A stretch of 63,022 nt of DNA, filler included, from an uncultured Methanosarcinales archaeon (GTDB lineage: Archaea > Nanobdellota > Nanobdellia > Woesearchaeales > CAZPJY01): assembly GCA_964587045.1 (NCBI GenBank). It is 3 parts of 3 records of this genome, joined end to end, with 100 filler letters (N's around TTAATTAATTAA, not from the genome) between each part and the next. Parts side by side here need not be neighbours in the genome. Positions count along the whole stretch, not along the records: positions 1 to 29,493 come from CAZPJY010000023.1; 2 more parts are not named here. One strand, written 5' to 3'. This document shows, in pieces, positions 5,247 through 30,119 of the stretch. Made by a program: the position numbers and the translations under genes. How positions within the stretch are numbered: the first letter of the stretch is position 1; each line of letters starts with the position of its first letter. Under the pieces are notes generated by a model, which saw only the letters and a program-made list of their open reading frames with translations, made no database searches and was not told the DNA's origin.

Positions 5247-5704
5247 ATATGACACAGGCCAAACCGTTTTGCCTTAGGGACCAAGCTGAGAATGAAGTCT
5301 GCCTGAAGGATTTCCTTGGCAAGTGGGTCGTACTGTATTTCTACCCCAAGGACAACACTCCGGGATGCACAATCGAGGCCAAGGACTTCTCAGCTGACTT
5401 CAAGGATTTCGAAAATCTGGATGCTGTCGTAATCGGAGTTTCTGCCGATTCCTGCGACAGCCACAAGAGGTTTGCCGAAAAGCACAACCTCAAGCTGAGG
5501 CTGCTCTCCGACCCGGACAAGCAGGTGCTCAAAGCCTATGGGGCCTGGGGCAAGAAGAAGTTCATGGGCAGGGAGTTCGACGGCATCATCCGAAGTACTT
5601 ATCTGATTGATCCCAAGGGCAACATTGTCAAGCACTGGCCCAAAGTCAGCGTCAAGGGCCACGCTGCCGAGGTCAGGGCTGCCATTGAAGCATCTACCAG
5701 TTGA
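5243..5704 (+). CDS. bcp: Bcp/PrxQ peroxiredoxin
   Basis: LYFYPKDNTPGCTIEA, IIRSTYLIDP. Confidence 0.92.
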   Translation: MNMTQAKPFCLRDQAENEVCLKDFLGKWVVLYFYPKDNTPGCTIEAKDFSADFKDFENLDAVVIGVSADSCDSHKRFAEKHNLKLRLLSDPDKQVLKAYGAWGKKKFMGREFDGIIRSTYLIDPKGNIVKHWPKVSVKGHAAEVRAAIEASTS

Positions 5705-5734
5705 GTCCCTAAAAAAGGCAGGGAACCGGAGGGA

Positions 5735-6985
5735 TCAGGACAGATAATCGCTGATATCCTGTGCAATCTTGGCCAACTGGATCCTCATGGCTCCTCTGGC
5801 CGTGACCCTGAACTTGTTGACACGTTCTGAGCAGTAGCTTGGATCCTTGACCTTGGTGGCTTGATAATCCCGTTCTAGCATCAGGGACATGTCGCAGAAA
5901 TGCTTTTTCATGATGGAATACCCCTCAATGACCATCTTTTTCCTCATTTCAGATGGATAGAGCCTTGATGGTGTCAGGACGAAGAGGCATTTTCCGTCTC
6001 GAGCTAGGGGGGTGGTCCAGTTGGCATTGCTCCAAAGGTACTGCAGATCCATCTCAGTGTTGATGTTGTAGGATTTCTTGAGCTTGATCAGCTGTTCCAA
6101 TGGGTTCGAATGGGAGAATGCTGTTTGCTGCCTTAATGAATAGAGCTTTTTTGGGTCAATGACAAAGGACTTGCCGTGGTACCTGATTGGAATCCTGAAA
6201 TCGAATGGGCGTTTGAACTGCGTCTCGCCTATTGTTCCCCTCACGACATATTTTGCCTTGTTGGCTCCACGTTTTCCGTATATCCCTTTTAGCATATTGG
6301 GGATGGTGTTCCCTTTCCTTATGCGGGCGATCTCCTTGTACAGCCTGCTGAACTTCTTTACCTCAGCATCCTCTGGGGTCAGGCGGTAGGAGGAAATTAT
6401 CGCTCCTGCGGCCTGCAGCTCCTCCATTATCGAATCCATGTTCCTTGGACGCAGCTCCCCGTCGCTCAATGGGGCGATTTCTACGAGCATTGTGGGAAGG
6501 GACAAATTGCCAAGCAGATAGAGGGAGGTGAAATCCATCATGGGCGATATGAGGGTTAGGTCCTTTCCCAACCTGGCCAGGATGTCTCCTCCTGCATCTA
6601 CCCCGACAATCAGCTCATAGCCCTTTGCCTTGGCCAGATTCTCGACCTCTTCGACGAGTCGTTCCGTGCCGAACCTGGTGGAGAGGTTGTAGTAAGAAGA
6701 TATTTCGACATGCTTGACCGCGGCGGGCAGATGGGCATCGATGAAACTCGCCTGGGAAACCTCCTTGGAAGGGATTATCCTCCTTATGTCACCTTCTATC
6801 CTGTTTATCACGCGCTCGTGGCTCTTGCCGTATGAGTGCAGCTTCGCCGGGTTCAGAACGCCAGCTATATCTGTCGCGACGCCCTGGCGCTGCAGATAGG
6901 ATGCGATAAGCACCGCGCTCACGATGTCATTGCCACCCCCAGTGCCGAAGACAAGAGCGCGTCCCACCCCTAAATCTGGGAACAT
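5735..6985 (-). CDS. DUF1152-family protein
   Basis: GTGGGNDI, GVDAGGDIL and DGEL motifs. Confidence 0.7.
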   Translation of the reverse strand: MFPDLGVGRALVFGTGGGNDIVSAVLIASYLQRQGVATDIAGVLNPAKLHSYGKSHERVINRIEGDIRRIIPSKEVSQASFIDAHLPAAVKHVEISSYYNLSTRFGTERLVEEVENLAKAKGYELIVGVDAGGDILARLGKDLTLISPMMDFTSLYLLGNLSLPTMLVEIAPLSDGELRPRNMDSIMEELQAAGAIISSYRLTPEDAEVKKFSRLYKEIARIRKGNTIPNMLKGIYGKRGANKAKYVVRGTIGETQFKRPFDFRIPIRYHGKSFVIDPKKLYSLRQQTAFSHSNPLEQLIKLKKSYNINTEMDLQYLWSNANWTTPLARDGKCLFVLTPSRLYPSEMRKKMVIEGYSIMKKHFCDMSLMLERDYQATKVKDPSYCSERVNKFRVTARGAMRIQLAKIAQDISDYLS

Positions 6986-7031
6986 GTGACCCGCTGGTCT
7001 GTTGTTATATTTAAATATAACCTGCCATTAC

Positions 7032-7397
7032 ATGGTGAGCATGCCAAAAACAGTGGTCTACGCCTTAGTCGTCCTCGGCAAGAGCATAATTCTTGAGCGC
7101 GGGCAGATTCCCAATACTCTTATGGGAGGCGACGAGACGCTCATCAACGCTGCTAAGAGGAAAATTCTGGAACTAACCGGCAAGATGACCTTCCTGTATC
7201 GGGAGCTCGGCTTAAGGACCGATGTCAAGGCGCCAGATCATGACAGGGAGATCCACCAATATGTTTACACGAGGTACAGCGACGAATTGAAGTCCAGTCC
7301 AAGGTTTGAGCTGGTGGGGATACCTGAAGCTGTCGAGAGGCTTGATGGAGAGCAGAGGGAGGCGGCCCAGAGGCTCTCTAGGATTACTACCATGTAG
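7032..7397 (+). CDS. Degenerate NUDIX-like protein
   Basis: P...GGDETLINAAKRKILELTG resembles a Nudix box with acidic residues lost; TATA-like sequence upstream. Confidence 0.5.
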   Translation: MVSMPKTVVYALVVLGKSIILERGQIPNTLMGGDETLINAAKRKILELTGKMTFLYRELGLRTDVKAPDHDREIHQYVYTRYSDELKSSPRFELVGIPEAVERLDGEQREAAQRLSRITTM

Positions 7398-7445
7398 TGG
7401 TAAAATAACGAAACATTTATAAAGTCCGGAGCGATAACACGCAGC

Positions 7446-8660
7446 ATGGGAAAATACTTCAACTCTCTGCTTGTAGGCTTAATGGTTATGGGCTGTGCTT
7501 CCACCAAACAACCCGCTAAAAAGGCTTCAATCCCCGAGATTTTCACGGATTACCAGGACTTTGTGGGATGGGAAGTTCTCAGCGAACAGGCGGATATGAC
7601 AATATCAAAACTGAGAGAGAAATACAACCGGCCTATGAGCCTCTTGCCTGTCGTAAACGACCTGTCGAAATTGGAATCCTTCGAGACGTTCGGCATATAC
7701 GCATCAGATATCTTCTTAGAGTACACGCAGTATAATGACAGCCCAAAAAAGGAGGTTTTGCACATACCAATGCCCGGATTCGATGCCCAGTTCGATTACA
7801 AACTTGACATGGAAATCGATATATCCCAGATGATATCAGATGATGATGGCATGAAAAGGCTCCCCTGCCTTGATGTTATCTTTGAGGTGTCTCCTCTTTT
7901 CAGTCCATCGGTGAAAACTAAGAAAGTCAACGTTGAAGGGGACAGCATCCCAACAGCACTGGTGAAATCCGTAGACAGGCTTCCAGGAGAAACGCTGATA
8001 CAAAGACTCAACCTGATAGACCTGATCCCTAAATACATAAAAGCCGAGCACCTCAAAGACGGACATCTCAGCGTCTCTATGCAGGGCAGCCTGAGTCTGA
8101 ACGAGTACCAAGACCCCGACCCGGAGAGCATCCTTGACATGGCAGCGTATGGCAGCAGGGAAATCCAGCGAAGCGAGTTTACCGACGCGGCAAACACCAT
8201 AAAGGGTGAAATGCAAAACCCTTACGAGATATCAAAGAAGATAGTGGAATTCATAGGCAATAAGATTGAATATGAATCGAAGGAGAACTTCTTCAAACCA
8301 TTCCAGGCCCTGACTGCGGGAAAGGGAGATTGCGACGATTACGCAGAGATCAGCAAGGAACTGCACAAAGCGGCGGGAATACCATCCAAAAGCAGGGCAG
8401 GATATGTCATGAGCCCTGACGGCGAGATCCTCGGTGGCCACAGATGGGTCGAAGTTTTATACCCCGCTGCTGACGGGTTCAGATGGGCCCTGCAGGATCC
8501 CACATGGGCGGATGACGAAATTGACGACACTGAGAAGTACCTGATTTTCAACAGCAAGGACCCAAAAGCAGACAAGCACATGCCGGAAATGTACGTGTTC
8601 CCCAAGCTTACAGGTATGATAGGGATCGTTGAACTCTCCTCGACGTGGAAGCGCAAGTGA
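7446..8660 (+). CDS. Lipoprotein with transglutaminase-like (Cys-His-Asp) domain
   Basis: Lipobox-like VMGC; GDCDDYA, GHRWVEV, QDPTW; TTTATAAA at 7416-7423. Confidence 0.82.
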   Translation: MGKYFNSLLVGLMVMGCASTKQPAKKASIPEIFTDYQDFVGWEVLSEQADMTISKLREKYNRPMSLLPVVNDLSKLESFETFGIYASDIFLEYTQYNDSPKKEVLHIPMPGFDAQFDYKLDMEIDISQMISDDDGMKRLPCLDVIFEVSPLFSPSVKTKKVNVEGDSIPTALVKSVDRLPGETLIQRLNLIDLIPKYIKAEHLKDGHLSVSMQGSLSLNEYQDPDPESILDMAAYGSREIQRSEFTDAANTIKGEMQNPYEISKKIVEFIGNKIEYESKENFFKPFQALTAGKGDCDDYAEISKELHKAAGIPSKSRAGYVMSPDGEILGGHRWVEVLYPAADGFRWALQDPTWADDEIDDTEKYLIFNSKDPKADKHMPEMYVFPKLTGMIGIVELSSTWKRK

Positions 8661-8724
8661 ATAATTCTGAATATTTCCTCACAACACCATAGGGTATAAA
8701 TACAAGTGGGTTATCACAGATACT

Positions 8725-9084
8725 ATGCAAAAAGCAAAACTCATGCTTTTCACAAGTCCGACGTGCCCGCACTGCCACAGCGCCCGCAGGATTACGGGCG
8801 AGCTGGCTTCTGAGAGGAAGGATTTCGACTATGTCGAGCATTCCACAGCCAGCCCTCAGGGCGGCAGGATAGCCAAGCACTTCAACATCATGTCAGTACC
8901 TACGACCATCATCCAGGGTCCGGGATATCTCGAGCCCATAGGCCTTGTCGGGACGCAGACCAAGCAGGTCCTGCACAAGTACCTCGATGTCAGCCTTGGT
9001 CTGCGTGATATCGATGAGAGGACAGGTCTGATGGATAGGTTCCGGGAAGGCATCAAGCTGGGCAAATTACGCCTGAAAATCTGA
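8725..9084 (+). CDS. Thioredoxin/glutaredoxin-family protein
   Basis: FTSPTCPHC, IMSVPT. Confidence 0.85.
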   Translation: MQKAKLMLFTSPTCPHCHSARRITGELASERKDFDYVEHSTASPQGGRIAKHFNIMSVPTTIIQGPGYLEPIGLVGTQTKQVLHKYLDVSLGLRDIDERTGLMDRFREGIKLGKLRLKI

Positions 9085-9086
9085 AA

Positions 9087-9461
9087 ATGGATGTCCCAAA
9101 GGAGCTGAACTATGCTATTGTGGGAGCATCTAATGACACTTCTAAGTACGGCTATATCGTCATGAAGGATTTGATGGAATCAGGATACGACGTCGTACCA
9201 ATCAACCCGAGGGGCGGAAGCATCCTTGGCATGCAGGTTTACACAGCGCTCGAATTCTACGATGGAGACATCGATGTGGTAGTGATCATCGTCCCTCCGG
9301 CCGTAACCGAAAGGATTGTTGAGCAGTGCGCCAAGCTCAAGATCAAGAAGGTATGGATGCAGCCAGGGGCTGAAAGCACGAAGGCGGTCGAATTCTGCGA
9401 GAGGAACGGCATAGAATGCGTTCATGGCAAATGCATCATGGTCGCCCGCAGGACCGGATGA
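9087..9461 (+). CDS. CoA-binding protein (YccU-like)
   Basis: AIVGASNDTSKYG, VPINP, VWMQPG, KCIMV. Confidence 0.9.
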   Translation: MDVPKELNYAIVGASNDTSKYGYIVMKDLMESGYDVVPINPRGGSILGMQVYTALEFYDGDIDVVVIIVPPAVTERIVEQCAKLKIKKVWMQPGAESTKAVEFCERNGIECVHGKCIMVARRTG

Positions 9462-19431: not shown

Positions 19432-22116
19432 TTACCAAGTAAGGTACTTCTCGATGAAGCGGTTGCCCCTCCTGTAGAGGATTTTCCTGATCACGTCCCC
19501 GAAGAAGATGAGGAAGGCGAATGGCAGGGATAACGAGATGTCGAGCAGGGAAAGGGGCGCGGTTCCGAAGAAAGTGTTCGCAGCAGGCACGTATGATATT
19601 ATTGCCACTAGTCCTAATTCCACGAAGATGCCCAGCAGCACCATGCGGTTGGAGAAAAGTCCGGCATCGAACACCGACTGCTTTCGGGTACGGCATATCA
19701 TCACGTCCGCCACCTGGCAGATGACAACGCTTGCGAAGAACGCGGTCGTCGCACGCATATACAAGGGGTCGGAGAATGCAAGCTCCTGCCCCCAGCTCCA
19801 TCCTCCTCGGGTCAGTATGAAGAAGAACGAAAAGAAGCCTGCGGCAGCCTGCAGCATACCTACTATGCCGTAAGATATGAATAACAACTTACCAGTCAGG
19901 AGCCTCTCCTTCCTCGAGCGGGGGGGCTTGCTCATCACATCAACTTCAGGCTTCTCGTTGCCCAGTCCCAATGCCGGGAGCAGATCAGTCCCCAAGTCAA
20001 TAGCCAGGATGAGGACCACAGTTATCGCGAGAGGCGAGTTGAGCAGCACGAAGGCTATGAAAGGCAGGATCTCAGGAACGTTGCTGGTTAGTATGTAGGC
20101 GATGAACTTCTTGATGTTCTCGAATATCGTGCGGCCGCTCTCGACAGCCTTCACGATGGTTGCGAAGTTGTCGTCCAGCAGCACCATGTCGCTCGCCTCC
20201 TTTGCGACATCTGTTCCTCCAAGGCCCATTGCGACCCCCATGTCTGCGTTCTTTATCGCAGGCGCATCATTCACGCCGTCGCCAGTTACCGTCACGACCT
20301 CTCCCAATGACTGGAGGCCCTGGACAATCCTGAGCTTCTGGATAGGGTTGGTGCGCGCGAAGATTATGGGATCTTTTTTCAAAATCTCTTTGAGGTGGTA
20401 GTCACCCATCTCAGCCAGCTCTTCACCTGTGACGATCGTGGCCTTCTCCTTTAGTCCCACCATCCCGACCTTGCGTGCGATCGCCTCGGCTGTCAGGCTG
20501 TAGTCGCCTGTGATCATGATGACCCTGATGCCGGCCCTCCTGCAGGTCGCGATGGCGTCGGCGATCTCAGGCCGCGGAGGGTCGAGCATGCCGGCTAGGC
20601 CGATGAAGGTGAATCCCTTCTCGATGCTCTTGCCCCTGATGGTCGGCTTGAACGCGAATGCGAGCACCCTCTCCCCGCGGGAAGCCAGATGCTCGTACTC
20701 GGAGTTTATCCTCTTGTGGTCGTCAGGGGTCAGTGGGAGCTCGACCCCCTTGACCATAATCCTGTCGCACTTCTTGATTACCACCTCAGGGGCCCCCTTC
20801 ATGAAAGCGATGTTGCCCTTCTTCTGCGCGTTGGTGGTTATCATTCGCTTGGTCTTGGAGTCGAAGGGCGACTCGTGGACGCGCGGCTCCTTGGCAGAGA
20901 CCTCATCGATGTCGATCAGCTTCGAGGCGAACTCCAGAAGGGAGGTCTCGGTGGGATCGCCGTGGAAAGTTCCTTCCTGCATGTGCGCGTTGTTGCAGAG
21001 GACCATCGTGCGGAGGAGCAGCGGCATGGTCTTGGTGTGGTCCAGCTCCCTCTCGAAAACCTTGACAGACTCGTTGTCGATGAAGATGGTGTTCACGCTC
21101 ATCTTGTTCTGCGTTATGGTCCCGGTCTTGTCTGTGCAGATGACAGTCGTCGAACCCAAGGTCTCAACCGACTCGAGGTTCTTGATCAAGGCGTTGTTCT
21201 TTGCCATCTTCTTTGCCGCGATGCTCAGAGAAAGCGTGACAGTGGGAAGGAGCCCTTCAGGGACGTTCGCCACGATGATGCCGATGGCGAAGATGAGGCT
21301 TCCCATTAATTGCTGGCCCATCGCTACGCTTATGAGGAAGAAGAGGATGCCCAGGAAAATGGCAATCGATGATATTATCTTTATGAAGTAGCGCAGCTCC
21401 TTGTGCAGGGGGGAGTCGACCTGCCTGGTCTCCTTGGTCAGCTTGAGGATCTTCCCAATCTCGGTGTGCATGCCTGTGCCGAAGACCACCGCCTCGCCGT
21501 TGCCGGACTGGACCAGCGTTCCGGAGAAGACCATGTTCCGCGACTCGAGGATGTTTTCGTGAGTGCATTCGAGCTTTCGCAGCTGCGGCTCGGACTCGCC
21601 AGTGAGGGATGAGTTGTCTACCTTCAAGGCGTTCTCCCTGATAAGGCGGCCGTCTGCAGGGATCTTGTCGCCTTCGCTCAGGAAGATCACGTCTCCAGGG
21701 ACAAGTTCTTCTGCGCGTATCTCCTTCTTTTTGCCATCGCGCAGGGTCTCGACCATGCTGGGCAGCATCTTTCGGAAGGATTCCATGATGCGCTCGCTCT
21801 CATACTCCTGTATGAAGGTAAAAGCGGAGTTGAGCAGCACAACCGCCGCCAGGGCTACGCCTATGTACAGGTTGCCATCTCCTGGTGAGAGGTATTCTGC
21901 GAAGAACGCTAGCCCCGAGCCAATCATCAGTAATACGGCAAAGAAGTTGGTGAACTGCTTTAGGAACCTGAGGATCAGCGGCACGTCCTTCTTGGTCTCG
22001 AGTACGTTTGGGCCTTTCCTGGCCAGCCGCTTGGCGGCCTCTGCGCTGCTGAGACCTTCTGGGGACGTAGAAAGCTGCTTGAAGAGTTCCTTTAATGGGA
22101 GCTTGTGCTCATCCAT
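19432..22116 (-). CDS. P-type cation ATPase, Na+/K+-ATPase alpha (P2C)-like
   Basis: VDNSSLTGESEP, GIIVANVPEGL, DKTGT, KGAPE, LTSNVPE, IDLGTD, CQVADVMICRTR. Confidence 0.92.
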   Translation of the reverse strand: MDEHKLPLKELFKQLSTSPEGLSSAEAAKRLARKGPNVLETKKDVPLILRFLKQFTNFFAVLLMIGSGLAFFAEYLSPGDGNLYIGVALAAVVLLNSAFTFIQEYESERIMESFRKMLPSMVETLRDGKKKEIRAEELVPGDVIFLSEGDKIPADGRLIRENALKVDNSSLTGESEPQLRKLECTHENILESRNMVFSGTLVQSGNGEAVVFGTGMHTEIGKILKLTKETRQVDSPLHKELRYFIKIISSIAIFLGILFFLISVAMGQQLMGSLIFAIGIIVANVPEGLLPTVTLSLSIAAKKMAKNNALIKNLESVETLGSTTVICTDKTGTITQNKMSVNTIFIDNESVKVFERELDHTKTMPLLLRTMVLCNNAHMQEGTFHGDPTETSLLEFASKLIDIDEVSAKEPRVHESPFDSKTKRMITTNAQKKGNIAFMKGAPEVVIKKCDRIMVKGVELPLTPDDHKRINSEYEHLASRGERVLAFAFKPTIRGKSIEKGFTFIGLAGMLDPPRPEIADAIATCRRAGIRVIMITGDYSLTAEAIARKVGMVGLKEKATIVTGEELAEMGDYHLKEILKKDPIIFARTNPIQKLRIVQGLQSLGEVVTVTGDGVNDAPAIKNADMGVAMGLGGTDVAKEASDMVLLDDNFATIVKAVESGRTIFENIKKFIAYILTSNVPEILPFIAFVLLNSPLAITVVLILAIDLGTDLLPALGLGNEKPEVDVMSKPPRSRKERLLTGKLLFISYGIVGMLQAAAGFFSFFFILTRGGWSWGQELAFSDPLYMRATTAFFASVVICQVADVMICRTRKQSVFDAGLFSNRMVLLGIFVELGLVAIISYVPAANTFFGTAPLSLLDISLSLPFAFLIFFGDVIRKILYRRGNRFIEKYLTW

Positions 22117-22148
22117 GACAGCTTAAAAGGGCGCGACCTTAATAAAGG

Positions 22149-22331
22149 TTACTTTGCTGTGTTGATGCCAAACACCTTGTACAGCCCGCAGAAACTCATC
22201 GCTGCCGTCGCCGCTGATATGACTGCGATAATGTAGAGCCACCATGCTCCCGTTATGAGTCCAAGTATTATCAGCAGCGCTGCCAGCACGTAGCGGACCT
22301 GCTGGTCCAGTTTTCCGACATTCTTTTCCAT
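22149..22331 (-). CDS. DUF2892 (YgaP-like) small membrane protein
   Basis: MEKNVGKLD..VR, FCGLYKVFGINT. Confidence 0.85.
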   Translation of the reverse strand: MEKNVGKLDQQVRYVLAALLIILGLITGAWWLYIIAVISAATAAMSFCGLYKVFGINTAK

Positions 22332-22363
22332 ACGTGAATGGCGGATTGTCCGGTATAAAAACC

Positions 22364-22549
22364 TTATCTTGAACCCTTCTGAAAGAGCTTGTGGATCAGG
22401 TGGAGCACCACTATAATCAGTGCTCCGTACAGCAGCAGGCCGCCGAACACGAAAGTCTGGGGAGGGGTGTTTACTATGACCCCGATGACAATCAGTAGCA
22501 AGATCAGGGCGATCTTCTCCTCCTCGACCCATCTCATGACTTGCTTCAT
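22364..22549 (-). CDS. Small 2-TM protein
   Basis: 61-aa hydrophobic ORF. Confidence 0.5.
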   Translation of the reverse strand: MKQVMRWVEEEKIALILLLIVIGVIVNTPPQTFVFGGLLLYGALIIVVLHLIHKLFQKGSR

Positions 22550-22623
22550 GTCTGCCTTAAGAGATGGAGGACGTTAAAATCTTTTCGAGTACCTTTATAA
22601 ATAATGGCTTTATCTGGGCTGTG

Positions 22624-23370
22624 ATGGCGCCAAGGATAGGCATATCGACAGTTGTGCTAGGCAGGAAATGGTTCGACCAGCTGGGAATGCTGCCGACCGA
22701 TGTAGTCGAGGTGTCCGGCAGGTATTCGAAGTTCGAGTACGACTACGAGTGGGTCCTGGCGCAGAGGAAGAGGCTCGAAGGCTTCGATGTCAGCGTCCAC
22801 TCAGGCACCAACTACGTCTTCTCAAGCCACCCTTTGTACACCCAGACCGAGCTTTACAGGCTGAGGTCTGAGGTGCTCACCTGCCATGAGTGGGGGGCGT
22901 CGCATCTCGTGTTCCACCTGAAGAACGGTATTCTCGGCCCCAAGGAGGAGGCGCAGCTAAAGGACGTCGCCGCAATGGCTGGGGAGTATGGCACGAAGCT
23001 GGTCTTCGAGTCCAACTCAAGCGCTGAAGCGAGGCTCGCCCTCGACTTCCTGGACCGCTTCCCGAATGTGGGCTACAACCTTGACATGGGCCACCTGTAC
23101 CACGGCTTTTGCAATGGCCGGCTTGGCATGGGCCTGGATGAGTTCGTCGCTTCGGTCAGGGACCGCACGGTCTACGTACACGCCCACAGCAACGACGGCA
23201 GGGCCGACCAGCATATTTCCATCGACAGGGGCAACCTGGACTGGGAGCACGTCCTCGATTCTTTGGACCGTGACAGGCTGGAGAAGGTGATTGTCGAAGT
23301 GAGGGATTTCGACGGCGCTTTCGAGACCTACTGCCTGCTCAACGACTACTTCAACAAAAGTAATAAATAA
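22624..23370 (+). CDS. Xylose-isomerase/AP-endonuclease-2 TIM-barrel protein
   Basis: SVHS, LVFH, FES, LDMGH, HAHSNDG.ADQH. Confidence 0.82.
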   Translation: MAPRIGISTVVLGRKWFDQLGMLPTDVVEVSGRYSKFEYDYEWVLAQRKRLEGFDVSVHSGTNYVFSSHPLYTQTELYRLRSEVLTCHEWGASHLVFHLKNGILGPKEEAQLKDVAAMAGEYGTKLVFESNSSAEARLALDFLDRFPNVGYNLDMGHLYHGFCNGRLGMGLDEFVASVRDRTVYVHAHSNDGRADQHISIDRGNLDWEHVLDSLDRDRLEKVIVEVRDFDGAFETYCLLNDYFNKSNK

Positions 23371-23391
23371 CCGCCCGAATTCTTTATCCCC

Positions 23392-23904
23392 ATGGAGACC
23401 CTGGAAGCCATCCGGACTCGTAGGAGCATCCGATCTTTCAAGAGCAAGGACGTGCCTGAACGCGTTCTGAAGCAGGTCCTGGAAGCCGGGATGATGGCGC
23501 CCTCAGCAGGGAACCAGCAGCCCTGGCACTTCGTCGTCATCAGGGACAGGGAGATGCTCGATTCCATTCCTTCCTTTCACCCGTACTCAATCATGGTCAG
23601 GCAGGCGCCGATGGCAATCCTGGTCTGCGCAGACCACGAGCTCGCGTCGCGGCACCACGACTTCTGGGTGCAGGACTGCTCGGCGGCTGTCCAGAACATG
23701 CTGCTCGCCATCCACGACCTTGGGCTTGCGGCTGTCTGGGTGTCTTCGTACCCGAACAAAGAGAGAGTGGCAGGCTTTCGGAAACTGTGCAGTCTGCCTG
23801 ACTCGGTCGATCCGCTCGCTTTGGTGGTGCTGGGCTACTCTGACCAGAAGGGCGGGAAGGTTGAGAGGTTTCGAGCTGAGAGGGTGCACCACAACACCTG
23901 GTGA
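23392..23904 (+). CDS. Nitroreductase-family protein
   Basis: RRSIRSF, APSAGNQQPWHF, QNMLLAIHDLGL. Confidence 0.93.
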   Translation: METLEAIRTRRSIRSFKSKDVPERVLKQVLEAGMMAPSAGNQQPWHFVVIRDREMLDSIPSFHPYSIMVRQAPMAILVCADHELASRHHDFWVQDCSAAVQNMLLAIHDLGLAAVWVSSYPNKERVAGFRKLCSLPDSVDPLALVVLGYSDQKGGKVERFRAERVHHNTW

Positions 23905-23906
23905 GC

Positions 23907-24221
23907 CTATCGCCTGCAATCGTCGCGGTAGGTTTCTAGCACGTACATGGATAGGCAAGCGTCAAGGTCAAATCTTTTTGGCCTTTTGAATACCTTACCC
24001 GTCTTCTTCTTGGCCTCATGATACTGCTTTAGGACTTGCTTTAATGTTCCTTTGGTCTCAAAGTCGCTGTAGATTTCAGATGACCTGTGGACGGTGACGT
24101 GCCTGAAGTACTCTGCCCAGCCTGGCCCATAGTCCTTTTCTGCGTAAATGTACTGGCCTATGTAGGTCAGCCCGTTTGGCATGTCGTAGGCCCTCAGCTG
24201 TATTAATTTCTTAACCATCAT
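23907..24221 (-). CDS. Small paralog 3 of tandem DMPNG family
   Basis: LRAYDMPNGLTYIG, HRS.EIYSD.ETKGTLKQVLKQYH, YVLETYRDD. Confidence 0.75.
   Translation of the reverse strand: MMVKKLIQLRAYDMPNGLTYIGQYIYAEKDYGPGWAEYFRHVTVHRSSEIYSDFETKGTLKQVLKQYHEAKKKTGKVFKRPKRFDLDACLSMYVLETYRDDCRR
24022..24059. repeat. 38-bp exact direct repeat, copy 1 (copy 2 at 24349-24386)
   Basis: tactgctttaggacttgctttaatgttcctttggtctc is identical in both paralogs. Confidence 0.9.
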
Positions 24222-24224
24222 AAA

Positions 24225-24539
24225 TCAACTTTTGTGTTGCTCGATATCGTCGCGGTAGGTCTCTAGCACGTGTATGGCAAGATAAGCATCATCATTGAAC
24301 CAATCAATGCTACCCGCTACTTTGCCTTCCTCTTTCCTGGCCGCGTGGTACTGCTTTAGGACTTGCTTTAATGTTCCTTTGGTCTCGAGGTCGCTGTAGA
24401 TTTCCCAGGACCTGTGGATAGTCACCTTCCTGAAGTATCTGTCCCAGCAGAATTGACGCTGTACGGAGATGTAGTTACCTATGTAGGTCATTCCGTTGGG
24501 CATGTCGTAGGCCCTCAGCTGTTGTATCAGTTTTACCAC
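24225..24539 (-). CDS. Small paralog 2 of tandem DMPNG family
   Basis: LRAYDMPNGMTYIG ... HVLETYRDD; GTG start 24539 inferred by alignment (track gives 24554). Confidence 0.75.
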   Translation of the reverse strand: MVKLIQQLRAYDMPNGMTYIGNYISVQRQFCWDRYFRKVTIHRSWEIYSDLETKGTLKQVLKQYHAARKEEGKVAGSIDWFNDDAYLAIHVLETYRDDIEQHKS

Positions 24540-24540
24540 A

Positions 24541-24819
24541 TCAATCGCCCTCAAGGACGTACATGGCGAGGGCCTTGCTGGGCCTGAAGTCCGGAATCCG
24601 CTCGACTGCGTGCCCTTGCCATTTCATCGACTTGTGTTGTTCCTTCATCTTATCGATGATTGTATCATAATCAGTGCTTACGTTGAGTTTCCTATCGATA
24701 TAGTTCTTAGTTGGCAACTTCACAACATCATAGAAGGTCCTCACGCCTGATGGGAAGAGGTTCATCCTGCCGATGTAGGTAAGCCCGTTGGGCATGTCGA
24801 AAGCGTAGAGTCCCATCAT
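24541..24819 (-). CDS. Small paralog 1 (divergent) of DMPNG family
   Basis: LYAFDMPNGLTYIG ... ALAMYVLE; ATGA overlap with the zinc-finger stop. Confidence 0.72.
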   Translation of the reverse strand: MMGLYAFDMPNGLTYIGRMNLFPSGVRTFYDVVKLPTKNYIDRKLNVSTDYDTIIDKMKEQHKSMKWQGHAVERIPDFRPSKALAMYVLEGD

Positions 24820-24929
24820 GCTCCCTCCTCTATCCTTTGCGGGTAGTCGAACCGCCTCTTGCATCTGGGGCAGGCTTTCGGGCTTTCCACCCTCGGTGTC
24901 CATTCATATGTGCAGTATTCGCATTCCAT
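24816..24929 (-). CDS. 37-aa CxxC..CxxC zinc finger (MECEYCTYEWTPRVESPKACPRCKRRFDYPQRIEEGA), not in ORF track
   Basis: Hand translation; GGAGTGA RBS; fills the operon gap exactly. Confidence 0.8.
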   Translation of the reverse strand: MECEYCTYEWTPRVESPKACPRCKRRFDYPQRIEEGA

Positions 24930-25511: not shown

Positions 25512-25814
25512 TCATTCAACATCGATACCCAACAGTAAGTCATACAGTGAGTCTGCGAGATTCTTGCAGTCCTTGTCCTGGACAGCTTTCTCTATTCTCT
25601 TCCAGTCATTAGCATAGTAGGCTACGTATGCGGACCTGGCACTGATGTCGATGTCCCTGATGGTCCGGCATGCGTCCCAGATTTCCTCCGCGCGCTGCTC
25701 CAGAGGTGGAAGTTCTTGTTTCTTCACGTTCCGACCAAGGAACGGGAACTCGCTTTTCAGCCAGTCCCTCAGCTCGTATCTGTGGTGGTACTTGTATGAA
25801 AACGTCTCCATCAT
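25512..25814 (-). CDS. Hypothetical 100-aa helical protein
   Basis: ATGA overlap with the stop of PafA-like copy A. Confidence 0.65.
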   Translation of the reverse strand: MMETFSYKYHHRYELRDWLKSEFPFLGRNVKKQELPPLEQRAEEIWDACRTIRDIDISARSAYVAYYANDWKRIEKAVQDKDCKNLADSLYDLLLGIDVE

Positions 25815-27115
25815 AATTTTCCTTTCTGATACTTTTGATACTTTTTGACCTCTTGCCTGGCCTTCTTCAGTTTTTCTGAATACGTTGAGTATGGATCTAT
25901 CATATGGAAATTGTACACCTTGAGACAATGTGTTAAGAAGCATGGCTCTGGACCTATATCCCATTCGGTGTTATAAAATACTCTATCACCAACGGTTTTG
26001 CTAATTTCCTCGGAGCACAGGAGATTGATGATGTGTCCACGGTAGTATGCCCTTGTGTCCTTTGGAGGATTTTTAGTGGCCTTCTCAATCATCTTGTCCG
26101 TTGTCAGCCGCTCCACTTTGCCCTGTTTTTGGAGCGCGTAGAAGAGGCCCCTTTCGCGGTCGGTGTCGTGGTATTGCAGGTCGATGTTCCTGAGGATTGG
26201 GTCGGACATATTGAGGTTGTGGCTTTCGGCGTACTGGTCTATCAGGGCCTTCTTGGTCACCCAGTCGAGGCGGCCCACCAGCTCTGTAGGGTTTCGGTCG
26301 AGCTTTTCAAGCGTGTCCTCCCACAGGGTAAGGATTGTGTCGGTTATCTCGTCACGCTGCTTATACCTTGTTTTAGCAGCTTTTAGGAACTCGCACTGGA
26401 TGTCCACTGCTTTGGCAGTTTTGTCGGTTCCGTGGACCATCCAGTCTGAGGTAGTCATGGCTATCTCTTCCAAGTCTTCCTCAATCTTCTCCATGTCGTA
26501 GGGAATGTTAGGCAGCGCCCCGTCCTCTGAGAGGTCCAGAACGAGGCCTGTGGTTCCGAGCTTGAGGAATCCAGCCACCTCGTTCATGTTCGCGTCTCCG
26601 TACATGTAATGGAATCGTATCTCCCTAGATGCAATGCTACTCATAGACAGCATGCCACAAAATATTTCACTGCTCCCCAGCAGCTTTTCCACCCGTTGGA
26701 ATATTTGGAATGTTCCGTGGGATGAAAGCCGGCCTGAACCGTCTATGATAGGTCTGGTCACTAGGAAGGGTATCATCTTTTCATCCCGCATCGTGAAATC
26801 ATAATTCTCATGGGTACCAAAAGTATTGCCTTGCGAGTCGATGTTGTTTTTGTATATCTTGTCTGCGTGCTTCTGTACCAGCAGCTCGCCTGCCTTGTCG
26901 TAGATTACCGCTTCGAGTGGGTTGCTGCACTCGGGCGTCGCGTACTCAATATGGCCACAGTCCACATAGATCCTACCTCCGTTGTATTGGAATTCTTGTT
27001 CCCCATCAAAATTCCAATCTGCCCCTACCGCACCGTACTCGTTCTCGATCCCGAAGATGCGTTTCCTCTTGTACTCTGGAACCTTCTTGAAAAGGGCTTG
27101 CTTGGAATGCTTCAC
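25811..27115 (-). CDS. Pup-ligase/depupylase (PafA/Dop)-family protein, copy A
   Basis: RIFGIENEYG, NGGRIYVD..HIEYATPEC, YKNNIDSQGN.FG.HENY, PFLVTR, RFH...GDANM, LKLGTT, LDWVTK, DLQYHD, PPKDTRA, W, DPY. Confidence 0.92.
   Translation of the reverse strand: MKHSKQALFKKVPEYKRKRIFGIENEYGAVGADWNFDGEQEFQYNGGRIYVDCGHIEYATPECSNPLEAVIYDKAGELLVQKHADKIYKNNIDSQGNTFGTHENYDFTMRDEKMIPFLVTRPIIDGSGRLSSHGTFQIFQRVEKLLGSSEIFCGMLSMSSIASREIRFHYMYGDANMNEVAGFLKLGTTGLVLDLSEDGALPNIPYDMEKIEEDLEEIAMTTSDWMVHGTDKTAKAVDIQCEFLKAAKTRYKQRDEITDTILTLWEDTLEKLDRNPTELVGRLDWVTKKALIDQYAESHNLNMSDPILRNIDLQYHDTDRERGLFYALQKQGKVERLTTDKMIEKATKNPPKDTRAYYRGHIINLLCSEEISKTVGDRVFYNTEWDIGPEPCFLTHCLKVYNFHMIDPYSTYSEKLKKARQEVKKYQKYQKGKL
26156..26257. 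repeat. 102-bp near-identical block shared by the PafA-like copies (other copy 28978-29079)
   Basis: Three mismatches by manual alignment. Confidence 0.88.
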
Positions 27116-27501
27116 AGTTCCATCACCTTTATCAGGTCGGAGAGCTCATCGTAGCTGATGCTCTTCCTCTCCTCGAAGATGAAGTAAAGCCTGTTCAGCA
27201 GGTCCACCCTTACCTGGTCCTTGGTCACCTTCCGGATGGCCTCGAAGTCGAGCTCTTTCTCTTCTGCTTCGTATCGAGCGTACCTCCCACACTGCTCGGA
27301 GAGGTATTTGTTCCTCTCCTCAGCTATGGCTTGCTTGAAGTGTAGCAGCCTGATAATCTCGACGCCCAGATGGTGGTCGCCGCCATCGACATAGTCATTG
27401 ATTGCCTTGTTCACAACCTTAACAGGGGCGTGCTTGCCGATCCTGTTCGGGAACTTCTCCTGAATATCCTTGTCGTAGATCCTTAGACTTTCTTCCATCA
27501 T
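27112..27501 (-). CDS. Hypothetical 129-aa protein
   Basis: 4-nt overlaps with both neighbours. Confidence 0.7.
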   Translation of the reverse strand: MMEESLRIYDKDIQEKFPNRIGKHAPVKVVNKAINDYVDGGDHHLGVEIIRLLHFKQAIAEERNKYLSEQCGRYARYEAEEKELDFEAIRKVTKDQVRVDLLNRLYFIFEERKSISYDELSDLIKVMEL

Positions 27502-28175
27502 GGTCCCTCATCTTTTGGGTAAGCTTCTCGCATTAGCGAGTGCAGGTCAAGCATTATGTCTATGAAATTTGATACCATGCGGTTCTGCGTGAGCAGCAGC
27601 TTTTCGTTGTTACTTATGATCCTCTCAATCTTCCCTTTCCTTCCCTGTTTTTTCTCAGCAATCTTCCTGAGCTTCATGTTCCCAACCCTTAAAGCCTTGA
27701 ATGCGATGTCATAGCATCCGAGCTCGGATTCGACGAACCTGTCGATGCCGTACTGGTCAAGGGCTCTTGCGAAGCTGTAGGCGAACGCATCGAATTCCGT
27801 CATCGATGCTTCGAGTTTTGCGTTTGCCTTCAGTTTCCACCTCTCGGCGCAGACTATTTCGCGGAGCTCGCATTTCTGCCGCTCGTAGGCCTTCATCTGG
27901 TCCAGGCCTTTCCTGCCTAGAGTGAGGAGCAGTCCGATCCTGGTCTGGAACGGCACGTTCGCCTTTCCCTTGTACATCTGCTTGTTGTTCTTCAGGAGTG
28001 CTTTTTCCGAGTAAGCTTCTGAGAAGATTTTACTCTCCCTTTTCGTTATCGACTTCTCCTTCACGAGGCTTTCCAGCGAGTCCTGGAGAGCCCGCCTGTC
28101 TACCTGCGTCTCCTGCTCAGCGATTCTTCCGTAGAAGGCGTCCAAGCATTCCTGGGTGAAGTTAGGCACTTGCAT
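27498..28175 (-). CDS. Hypothetical helical 225-aa protein
   Basis: Overlaps both neighbours; charged, helical composition. Confidence 0.7.
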   Translation of the reverse strand: MQVPNFTQECLDAFYGRIAEQETQVDRRALQDSLESLVKEKSITKRESKIFSEAYSEKALLKNNKQMYKGKANVPFQTRIGLLLTLGRKGLDQMKAYERQKCELREIVCAERWKLKANAKLEASMTEFDAFAYSFARALDQYGIDRFVESELGCYDIAFKALRVGNMKLRKIAEKKQGRKGKIERIISNNEKLLLTQNRMVSNFIDIMLDLHSLMREAYPKDEGP

Positions 28176-29493
28176 CACCCATTAATATTGATATTATCTT
28201 ATCCCTTCCATCAAGAACATCTTGTCGTCCCAGTATGAATTCGTCTGCTAATTCCGCGATTTCCTGTTTGATGGAGTTTGATATGGATGGGCTGTTTAGG
28301 ATGTCTTCCATATTGGCCTGTTTTGTAACCTTGTATCCCCTGACCTCCCCTGCTTGGAATTTTACGAGTTCTCTATTGTCTAACCGGGCGATGACAGCTT
28401 TGCCCCCATCTTCAACCTGCTTTATGGTGCCGAAGCTGTCCTTTTTCACGAAATTGGCATAATATCCGTGTTCACACTCGCTTTCATACCTGAAATGGTC
28501 CCCTCTTGGTCCCTTAACCTTTATCCTGTCACCTTTCTTCAGGCAGAATACCGGAGCCCAATGCAGGTTCAGCAATTTATTGTATTCGGAAGAATCGATT
28601 ATTTTTCTTTGTATTATGTCAGTCATAATTTTTTCTTCGAACGATGCCAATTCATCCTTTCCCAACACCCTGATTACAGTCTCATAGTACTTTTCAGGGT
28701 TGAATTTGATAGTGCCGCTGATGAGACTATTTACGAAATCTCTGACACTCATTGGATCGTTTTCGAAGGGGTCAACGAAGCTCGGAAAAATATTATCATA
28801 GCACTCGTACGAATCCCAATTGACATATTTAATGATATGTGGGTGACACAGCATTTTCACCCTGATATTTGCGCGTGTGTCCTTAGGAGGCTCTTGCACT
28901 GCGTGCTCTATCATCTCGTCTGTTACCAGCCGCTCGACCTTGCCCTGTTTTTGCAGCGCATAGAACAGGCCCCTTTTGCGGTCGGTGTCGTGGTATTGCA
29001 AGTCGATGTTCCTGAGGATCGGGTCGGACATATTGAGGTTGTGGCTTTCGGCGTACTGGTCGATCAGGGCCTTCTTGGTGATCCAGTCAACGCGTCCGAC
29101 GAGCTCTGACTGGTCTTGGTCGAGCTTGTCCAAGGTGTCTTGCCAAAGTTTCAGTATCACATCTGTTATTTCATCACGCCCTTCATACCTCCTCGCTTCT
29201 TTTAGGTAAGCGCGCTGGACATCGGTCGCCTTGCGTCTAGTGATCCGGCAACCCTTACTTGCCGAATTGAAATAGACCAACCAGTCTTTAGCTTGTTTTG
29301 AGATGCGCTTTAGGTCTAGTATTACCTGCATTTGGTTATAGTAGAAATACCTTCCGTCGCTGAAGGGCAATGATTTGTCCTCTATCAGGTCCATTACCAG
29401 ACCTGTGGTCCCGAGCTTCAGGAACTCAGCGACCTCTGACATGTTGGCATCTCCTAATAGTAGATGATGCCTTCTAAAGTTCACGACTTCATA
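28162..29493 (-). CDS. PafA/Dop-family protein, copy B, 5' part lost at contig end, with C-terminal extension
   Basis: RRHHLLLGDANMSEVAEFLKLGTT, VDWITK, DLQYHD, PPKDTRA, VNWD, VDPF; frame open up to the gap. Confidence 0.88.
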   Translation of the reverse strand, partial: YEVVNFRRHHLLLGDANMSEVAEFLKLGTTGLVMDLIEDKSLPFSDGRYFYYNQMQVILDLKRISKQAKDWLVYFNSASKGCRITRRKATDVQRAYLKEARRYEGRDEITDVILKLWQDTLDKLDQDQSELVGRVDWITKKALIDQYAESHNLNMSDPILRNIDLQYHDTDRKRGLFYALQKQGKVERLVTDEMIEHAVQEPPKDTRANIRVKMLCHPHIIKYVNWDSYECYDNIFPSFVDPFENDPMSVRDFVNSLISGTIKFNPEKYYETVIRVLGKDELASFEEKIMTDIIQRKIIDSSEYNKLLNLHWAPVFCLKKGDRIKVKGPRGDHFRYESECEHGYYANFVKKDSFGTIKQVEDGGKAVIARLDNRELVKFQAGEVRGYKVTKQANMEDILNSPSISNSIKQEIAELADEFILGRQDVLDGRDKIISILMGDASA

Positions 29494-29593
29494 NNNNNNN
29501 NNNNNNNNNNNNNNNNNNNNNNNNNNNNNNNNNNNNNTTAATTAATTAANNNNNNNNNNNNNNNNNNNNNNNNNNNNNNNNNNNNNNNNNNNN
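29494..29593. other. Artificial contig linker
   Basis: 100 nt of N with central TTAATTAATTAA (stops in all six frames). Confidence 0.97.
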
Positions 29594-29594
29594 G

Positions 29595-30119
29595 AAAAGA
29601 CAGAAGCTTCCTCATGTACTATCAAAAAAGGACATATTGGCCATGATTGGTTCGACAACGAATGTGAAGCACAAAATCATCGTTGAACTGCTATACTCGA
29701 CAGGGATCAGATTGCAGGAGCTAGTCAACCTGCGTTATGAGGATATAGATTGGGAAAGCAGGACAATCCATGTCAAGAATGGTAAAGGACACAAAGACCG
29801 AATAAGCATTGTAAGTCAGAGAGTCCTGTCCAGACTTGATTCCCGAGGCAAAGGCCTTGTGCTGCAGGGTAGGAAGGGTAAATACAGCAAGAAATCGGTT
29901 CAGATGGTTGTCGATAAACTGGCCCAGAAAGCAGGAATTCGACGTAAAGTGACACCTCACCTCCTTCGTCACTCATTCGCAACACATTTATTGGAGAAAG
30001 GCACTGATCTTCGATATATCCAGGCATTACTAGGCCACAGAAGGCTTGAAACAACCCAGATATATACAAGAGTAGCAAAGAACAAGCTCAGCAATATTGA
30101 AAATCCTCTGGATGGATAG
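29595..30119 (+). CDS. Tyrosine recombinase (XerA/XerD-like), 5' partial
   Basis: KLPHVLS, YSTGIR, GKGHKDR, HLLRHSFATH, LLGH, TTQIY, ends NPLDG. Confidence 0.93.
   Translation, partial: KRQKLPHVLSKKDILAMIGSTTNVKHKIIVELLYSTGIRLQELVNLRYEDIDWESRTIHVKNGKGHKDRISIVSQRVLSRLDSRGKGLVLQGRKGKYSKKSVQMVVDKLAQKAGIRRKVTPHLLRHSFATHLLEKGTDLRYIQALLGHRRLETTQIYTRVAKNKLSNIENPLDG

Follow-up and report, generated by a model that had tools for sequence, protein, structure and literature searches.

The last ligase paralog of a pupylation-type gene array in an archaeal genome, here called copy A, keeps every core residue of the Pup-ligase family and has lost the loop that docks target proteins in the bacterial enzyme. 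With some hesitation, we favour the reading that copy A is a ligase that still activates Pup, has its target-binding surface stripped away, and would act on few targets or on targets supplied by a partner; this reading draws on sequence comparison and on analogy with point mutants of PafA.

The window (the whole stretch of DNA that was analysed, 63,022 nt) joins contigs C23, C24 and C48 by runs of N, the first of which occupies 29494–29593. Contig C23, from a genome of 1.6 Mb, fills positions 1–29493 in its entirety and contains the following features.

28162..29493, minus strand: copy B, the C-terminal half of a ligase with an extra C-terminal domain, cut at the end of C23
27498..28178, minus strand: ORF226, function unassigned, overlapping the stop of copy B
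27112..27501, minus strand: ORF129, an orphan and candidate partner or target, whose stop overlaps the start of copy A
25811..27115, minus strand: copy A, a Pup-ligase-family gene of 434 aa, the last ligase paralog of the array
26591..26803, minus strand: residues 105–175 of copy A, the zone of focal divergence, from the comparison of consensus columns
26609..26698, minus strand: Q140–H169 of copy A, the alpha-loop and extended loop, 8 residues short, with read support over 26522–26691
26081..26320, minus strand: residues 266–345 of copy A, a helical block homogenised with copy B, judged by identity to B
25512..25847, minus strand: ORF111, which follows the single ligase in locus L113 and a ligase remnant in genome G326

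The copy A ORF is intact, with a GTG start preceded by a GGTGA motif and 434 codons on the minus strand, and from copy B through ORF111 adjacent genes overlap at their stops and starts. An integrase gene at 29637–30119 belongs to C24 and hence is no neighbour of copy B. Three tandem small ORFs of one family (120, 109 and 104 aa; 23907–24903, minus strand) lie at the operon end; they are 74–86% alike in DNA blocks and occur nowhere else in the genome.

Copy A scores 287.6 bits against the Pfam model Pup_ligase (PF03136; cut-off 25) and contains a glutamine-synthetase-type cradle and the PafA/Dop C-terminal domain. Every motif named in the original prediction is found, including G22-x-E24-x-E26, Y50-V-D52-C-G-H55-x-E57 and T60-P-E62 in the N-terminal part, followed by KNNxDSxGN (89–97), HENY (102–105), Q140-R141, R167-x-H169, T354-R-A and W385. 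The predicted preservation of the ATP and metal core is also supported: the residues are in register, and copy A keeps 12 of 12 core positions (E8, E10, D94, His, E99, H155, E156, Q204, R239, H241, the TRA Arg and Trp). To place copy A in its family, we gathered 410 sequences, 400 of which cover the core and 296 of which were left after a <90% identity filter; all 12 core residues are kept in 239 of these 296 relatives. Close homologs include P0011 (50% identical), labelled 'Candidatus Nanoarchaeia archaeon' at NCBI. Judging by such labels, and by the two proteasome subunits and the PAN-like ATPase that the genome encodes, the host is probably a DPANN archaeon of the Nanoarchaeota.

Comparison with PafA and Dop bears out three further traits claimed for copy A. 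Its YVDCGHIEY sequence has the D-x2-H spacing of Dop (YVDHAH) and not the D-x3-H spacing of PafA (YLDVGSH), its KNNxDSxGN motif matches C. glutamicum PafA, and it has no long Dop loop, with 22 residues in the interval between the E10 and R90 columns versus 72–123 in Dop-slot proteins. Copy A falls under the cut-offs of both NCBIfam models, with 209.9 bits for TIGR03686 (PafA; cut-off 551.3), which the intact ligase on contig C15 also misses (262.6), and 245 bits for TIGR03688 (Dop; cut-off 492).

The combination that had earned copy A the name of a PafA/Dop hybrid is not its own. Of the 296 members, 69 combine Dop-type spacing with an N-terminal loop that is short, the Dop-loop interval being no longer than 36 residues, and 39 more with this spacing have 37–64 residues, among them proteins of Poribacteria, Gemmatimonadota and Latescibacterota encoded downstream of a Dop; bacterial proteins in the ligase slot can also have Dop-type spacing. 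Copy A lies inside a 25-member clade (support 0.92) with the same traits, as sister to its own C15 paralog (0.89), and the clade is separate from bacterial PafA and from Dop (the branch between them has an SH-aLRT of 98 in a quickly built tree of selected sequences, without a defined root). Because the whole clade has them, the hybrid traits were inherited. On the aligned sequences, Dop-type spacing with a short loop is a mark of the clade, and the loss of the docking loop alone is specific to copy A.

The segment from the QR glutamine to the RxH histidine measures 36–44 residues in 290 of the 296 members and exactly 38 in 237, versus 30 in copy A, the second shortest of the set. Only P0235 is shorter; it has all core residues and just 16 residues from QK to RxH, its entire loop being gone. 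The hydrophobic-hydrophobic-x-x-R/K motif, which carries the NTRDE arginine, was found by an anchor-based pattern in 286 of 296 members, copy A being among the 10 without it, and a segment free of threonine occurs in 8 of 296, copy A included. Among the 239 core-complete relatives, the loop arginine motif is missing only in copy A, P0008 and P0235. Within the clade, the position holds Lys or Arg in 23 of the other 24 members, and P0008 has an insertion there. No second species with the loop of copy A was found among the family sequences gathered.

Aligned to a profile of the 24 other clade members, copy A has an 8-residue deletion in the alpha-loop that removes both threonines and the first arginine (R201 in PafA), while the remainder aligns ungapped and carries substitutions in register, with M155 in place of the Arg/Lys that corresponds to R207 in PafA and R227 in Dop, and S157 in place of Glu. 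The original prediction had the RxIINTRDEPHA block replaced: the change is real and rare, but it is an 8-residue deletion plus in-register substitution and no simple replacement. The exact register of the loop is not certain from the alignments. One MAFFT run places the gap after R164, and the AlphaFold model suggests a shifted register that may bring R164 nearby; every register leaves a shortened loop without the Thr pair. The fold of copy A is confidently predicted, with its main internal dip at residues 151–170 (block pLDDT 66 and 76), where the model has a short helix (150–155) and a strand (158–160) at low confidence.

The divergence is concentrated around this loop. Within residues 105–175, 23 of 46 consensus columns are changed in copy A versus 27 of 184 elsewhere, and departures there are A-only in 17 cases versus paralog-only in 3 (p = 0.003); four other regions are not significant. 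The zone includes Q122P, A125D, L168F, L170Y and I171M, and with the Thr pair the equivalents of R201, R207 and R218 are gone.

An assembly error or a compensated frameshift is a barely credible origin for the odd segment. C23 does break at the matching position of copy B, but the copy A DNA is identical over 3094 of 3094 bases in a separate metagenome contig (L114), and a contig from a public run covers 26522–26691 with no difference, both possibly from the same sample as the window; the other two reading frames of the segment hold stops and do not restore the motif.

Characterised enzymes indicate what such a loop does. The cryo-EM structure of PafA with PanB has T197, T198, R199, R201, R207 and P210 facing the target, and PafA loop 196–216 contacts the target protein (bioRxiv 10.64898/2026.04.10.717840). 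M. smegmatis PafA pupylates more slowly when it carries T183A or T184A (PMC7947786), and its R193A variant has no detectable activity on FabD (PMC7947786) and produces no pupylome (PMC7947786, PMC10465538). In C. glutamicum PafA, R207A abolishes pupylation of FabD and halves that of PanB; phospho-Pup still forms, and free lysine is ligated at high concentration (PMC10465538). A PafA site-2 triple mutant is slower, with free lysine included (PMC10465538), and losing the Thr pair or R201 lowers or nearly abolishes PafA activity (PMC7947786, bioRxiv 10.64898/2026.04.10.717840). On the donor side, a weak salt bridge joins R201 of PafA with the end of Pup, Dop T217 bonds the last residue of Pup and Dop R227 holds phosphate (PMC8599861); R227, the same arginine as R207, is essential in Dop (PMC10465538). 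The loop arginine is common to carboxylate-amine ligases except GatB/GatE (PMC2588565).

Because of these structures and mutants, we regard the loop as mainly an acceptor-side surface in the ligase, with a smaller donor-side contact. With the loop lost, copy A therefore cannot work as an ordinary Dop; if it is a ligase, the ordinary targets should be out of its reach. The predicted change in substrate recognition is supported. PafA R207A, which lacks the very arginine that copy A has lost, still forms phospho-Pup and ligates free lysine (PMC10465538). A second Dop-type deamidase or depupylase would suit the D-x2-H spacing and the better score to Dop (TIGR03688, 245 bits versus 210 for PafA), but copy A has neither the Dop loop nor equivalents of T217 and the essential, phosphate-holding R227, and a genuine Dop is present on C15, which makes this role most improbable.

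That R207A fails on FabD yet accepts free lysine when the concentration is high also speaks for an enzyme that caps or discharges Pup, passing phospho-Pup to a small amine, ammonia or water and thereby controlling the ligatable tag pool. The shorter loop, which leaves no protein-docking surface, would fit such a role; the new loop may equally close the site, the reaction would waste ATP in a small genome, and no precedent was found in the literature searched. We consider capping improbable.

Copy A may instead be dead or nearly so, either a pseudoenzyme that binds Pup or ATP as a buffer or regulator or a spare copy in early decay, and this we hold to be a serious possibility, if a somewhat doubtful one. 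The equivalents of the Thr pair, R201, R207 and R218 were lost together, so that the losses exceed R207 and count against the favoured reading; the other two ligases of the genome keep the basic residue that copy A lost; and M. smegmatis R193A neither pupylates FabD nor yields a pupylome. The earlier reading gave the dead-enzyme option too little weight in view of that inactive mutant. Furthermore, genome G236 has an open 699-aa ligase paralog (L025:11528–13627) before its intact ligase that is without E10, D94, H97, E99 and R239, and therefore dead copies do persist in such arrays; G326 carries a decayed ligase remnant.

Against decay, the metal, nucleotide and catalytic-base residues of copy A all survive with synonymous sites near saturation relative to the paralogs. 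The dN and dS are 0.35 and 1.67 versus the C15 ligase and 0.33 and 1.48 versus copy B, pairwise values that also average in the time preceding the loop loss, and they indicate that the gene is under purifying selection. In addition, the parts of copy A outside residues 105–175 have diverged no further than is usual in its clade (27 of 184 columns changed; clade range 19–73).

The most conserved part of copy A is the block that it shares with copy B. Residues 266–345, which we take to be the Pup-binding groove, are 85% identical to B in amino acids (dN 0.09, dS 0.49), with a 41-nt identical run and a 300-nt repeat at 82%. In G582, the same block is homogenised between Dop and ligase (190 nt at 91%), the genes at 5314–7005 (Dop) and 7384–9348 (ligase) of locus L212 sharing a near-identical stretch, and in P0027/P0011 about 50 identical residues are shared between Dop and ligase. 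The near-identical Dop/ligase blocks suggest gene conversion between hydrolase and ligase, with mis-assembly as the alternative.

The other components of the pathway lie elsewhere in the genome, which holds five Pup-ligase-family matches. The end of contig C15 carries, in this order, an ARC-type ATPase (best NCBIfam match TIGR03689, 381.6 bits, below 504.75), a Dop (413.3 bits, below 492.3) with the long loop and an intact NTRDE motif and arginine, a 60-residue tag ORF with YKQQGGQ at its C terminus, a ligase of 580 residues and the opening 162 codons of a further ligase (C15:44654–45139), which from their sequence are probably the N-terminal half of copy B. The two contig ends have no overlap and no read support for a join; the break is in frame at the K-x-E of the family, C15 stopping at the Lys and the second residue of C23 being the Glu. 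ARC, Dop, tag, ligase 1, copy B, ORF226, ORF129, copy A and ORF111 would thus probably form one operon, and the linkage of copy A to the tag rests on this presumed C15–C23 join.

The related locus L113 has ARC, Dop, tag, a single ligase and an ORF111 homolog (E 7e-29); copy A therefore occupies the ancestral position before ORF111. In L224 (G099), homologs of ORF226 and ORF111 are direct neighbours, and no ligase separates them. Upstream of the Pup operon, C15:29308–38447 (L034) encodes a protein of 760 aa bearing a Walker-A-like motif, one coiled-coil and one vWA-like protein, and two Ser/Thr kinases, and a kinase homolog precedes the operon in L113 too. Other layouts occur: in L026 (G156) and L027 (G354), the ligase is divergent from ARC-Dop-tag and is followed by genes that are putatively proteasome-beta-like by motif, and L029, L032, L030, L213 and L214 hold lone family members from further genomes of the phylum, neither ARC nor tag being seen in the stretch fetched. 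The family is patchily distributed: with the genome itself counted, it occurs in 10 of the 401 genomes sampled from the order and in 9 of the 401 from the phylum. Proteasome alpha and beta are encoded on C14 and C38, outside the operon, together with a PAN-like ATPase in the genome.

The tag belongs to a family of 7 members and is single-copy in the genome. It scores below the cut-off of the Pfam Pup model, as does a relative (E 0.008), and in a search of the PDB with the family profile, Pup chains rank 2–5 with weak end-aligned matches (E 0.14–0.44), behind one chance match. In six other loci (L113, G236, G392, G582, G156 and G354), the gene after Dop is a small ORF whose last residue is Q or E. 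ORF111 and ORF202 finish in Glu, and the Pup-like G-G-Q/E terminus is absent from ORF226, ORF129 and ORF111.

These termini bear on the earlier suggestion that the acyl donor may not be Pup, under which copy A would activate some other carboxylate, be it free glutamate, a different peptide or a protein of the operon. Small ORFs of no assigned function surround copy A, and it lacks the equivalents of Dop T217 and PafA R201, which contact the last residue of Pup (PMC8599861). The lost segment, however, contacts the target in PafA, QR and RxH are kept, the C-terminal helical block held in common with B is the best-conserved part of the protein, none of these three ORFs has a G-G-Q/E end, and just one Pup-like tag gene was found in the genome. 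We did not retain the suggestion, and a different donor seems a poor prospect.

The favoured reading, a Pup-activating ligase with few or partner-supplied targets, can be set out as a pathway. The C15 operon supplies ARC, Dop, tag and ligase, as seen in the sequence, with copy A as the likely third ligase; the half ligase on C15 would continue as copy B and be transcribed together with ORF226, ORF129, copy A and ORF111. By analogy with PafA/Dop biochemistry, Dop would deamidate the tag Gln to Glu, and copy A with ATP and Mg would form phospho-Pup. Broad tagging would be done by the two long paralogs, copy A would pass the tag on only where something else brings a lysine near, and ARC would feed tagged proteins into the 20S proteasome of the cell, whose two subunits the genome encodes alongside the ARC-type ATPase, Dop, tag and ligase.

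Both long ligases, the C15 ligase and copy B, have a changed Thr pair, a different loop and about 190 extra C-terminal residues. Part of the ligase 1 extension matches stand-alone proteins of G237 (E 2e-8) and the extension of the G236 ligase (E 6e-10). The 699-aa paralog in G236 also has an extension that matches that of the C15 ligase. In L229 (G237:C1 ~21000–24000), tandem proteins start with the C15 ligase-extension domain and have weak ORF111-like parts, and the adjacent gene is, we presume, ThiF/E1-like.

Because the tag surface is shared while the target surfaces differ, a bolder reading suggests itself, in which the three ligases are split in the manner of eukaryotic E3s. The Pup-binding surface would be held in common by gene conversion, target loops and C-terminal domains would diverge, and copy A would be the loop-less extreme with its target chosen by a partner such as ORF129; we think this possible but on the unlikely side.

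A single PafA selects hundreds of targets that have no motif in common, and the explanation offered so far rests on this loop (PMC10465538; bioRxiv 10.64898/2026.04.10.717840). Three natural paralogs with a shared tag and differing loops, one of them loop-less, would offer a direct test of loop specificity and of multi-ligase pupylation. Should copy A be dead, it would be a minor pseudoenzyme, with the interest shifting to the operon. PafA is employed for proximity labelling, and a ligase that needs tethering to act could serve this purpose more cleanly.

Compared with PafA (C. glutamicum, PDB 4bjr/4b0t; TIGR03686), copy A is without T197/T198, R201, R207, R218 and R442/K444, has D-x2-H spacing, is 8 residues short in the alpha-loop and extended loop, has an archaeal host, and scores 210 bits against a cut-off of 551; PafA has been described as the sole Pup ligase, whereas copy A is one of three ligase paralogs. 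Compared with Dop (A. cellulolyticus, PDB 4b0r/7oyh; TIGR03688), it is without the Dop loop, T217 and R227 (245 bits against 492). It shares with the PafA R207A and R193A mutants the loss of the same arginine, with which the mutant keeps activation and loses target docking; unlike these point mutants, it is a natural gene with a larger lesion (a deletion plus ~20 substitutions). The operon has the same ARC-Dop-tag-ligase order as the Pup/UBact-proteasome operons of Nitrospirota, Methylomirabilota and Poribacteria, and ligase-slot proteins of Poribacteria, Gemmatimonadota and Latescibacterota share D-x2-H with copy A; unlike the Pup/UBact operons, this one has several ligases and is without proteasome genes. 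The literature describes the Pup system as bacterial with PafA as its sole ligase, and our search, covering listings and passages of papers, found no publication on DPANN pupylation genes or on multiple ligases (e.g. PMC8204110, PMC2948915, PMC11354881, PMC3511204, PMC12053664, bioRxiv 2024.12.16.628271). Relative to these systems, what is new is an operon probably extended to three ligases and, within it, the loop-less copy A.
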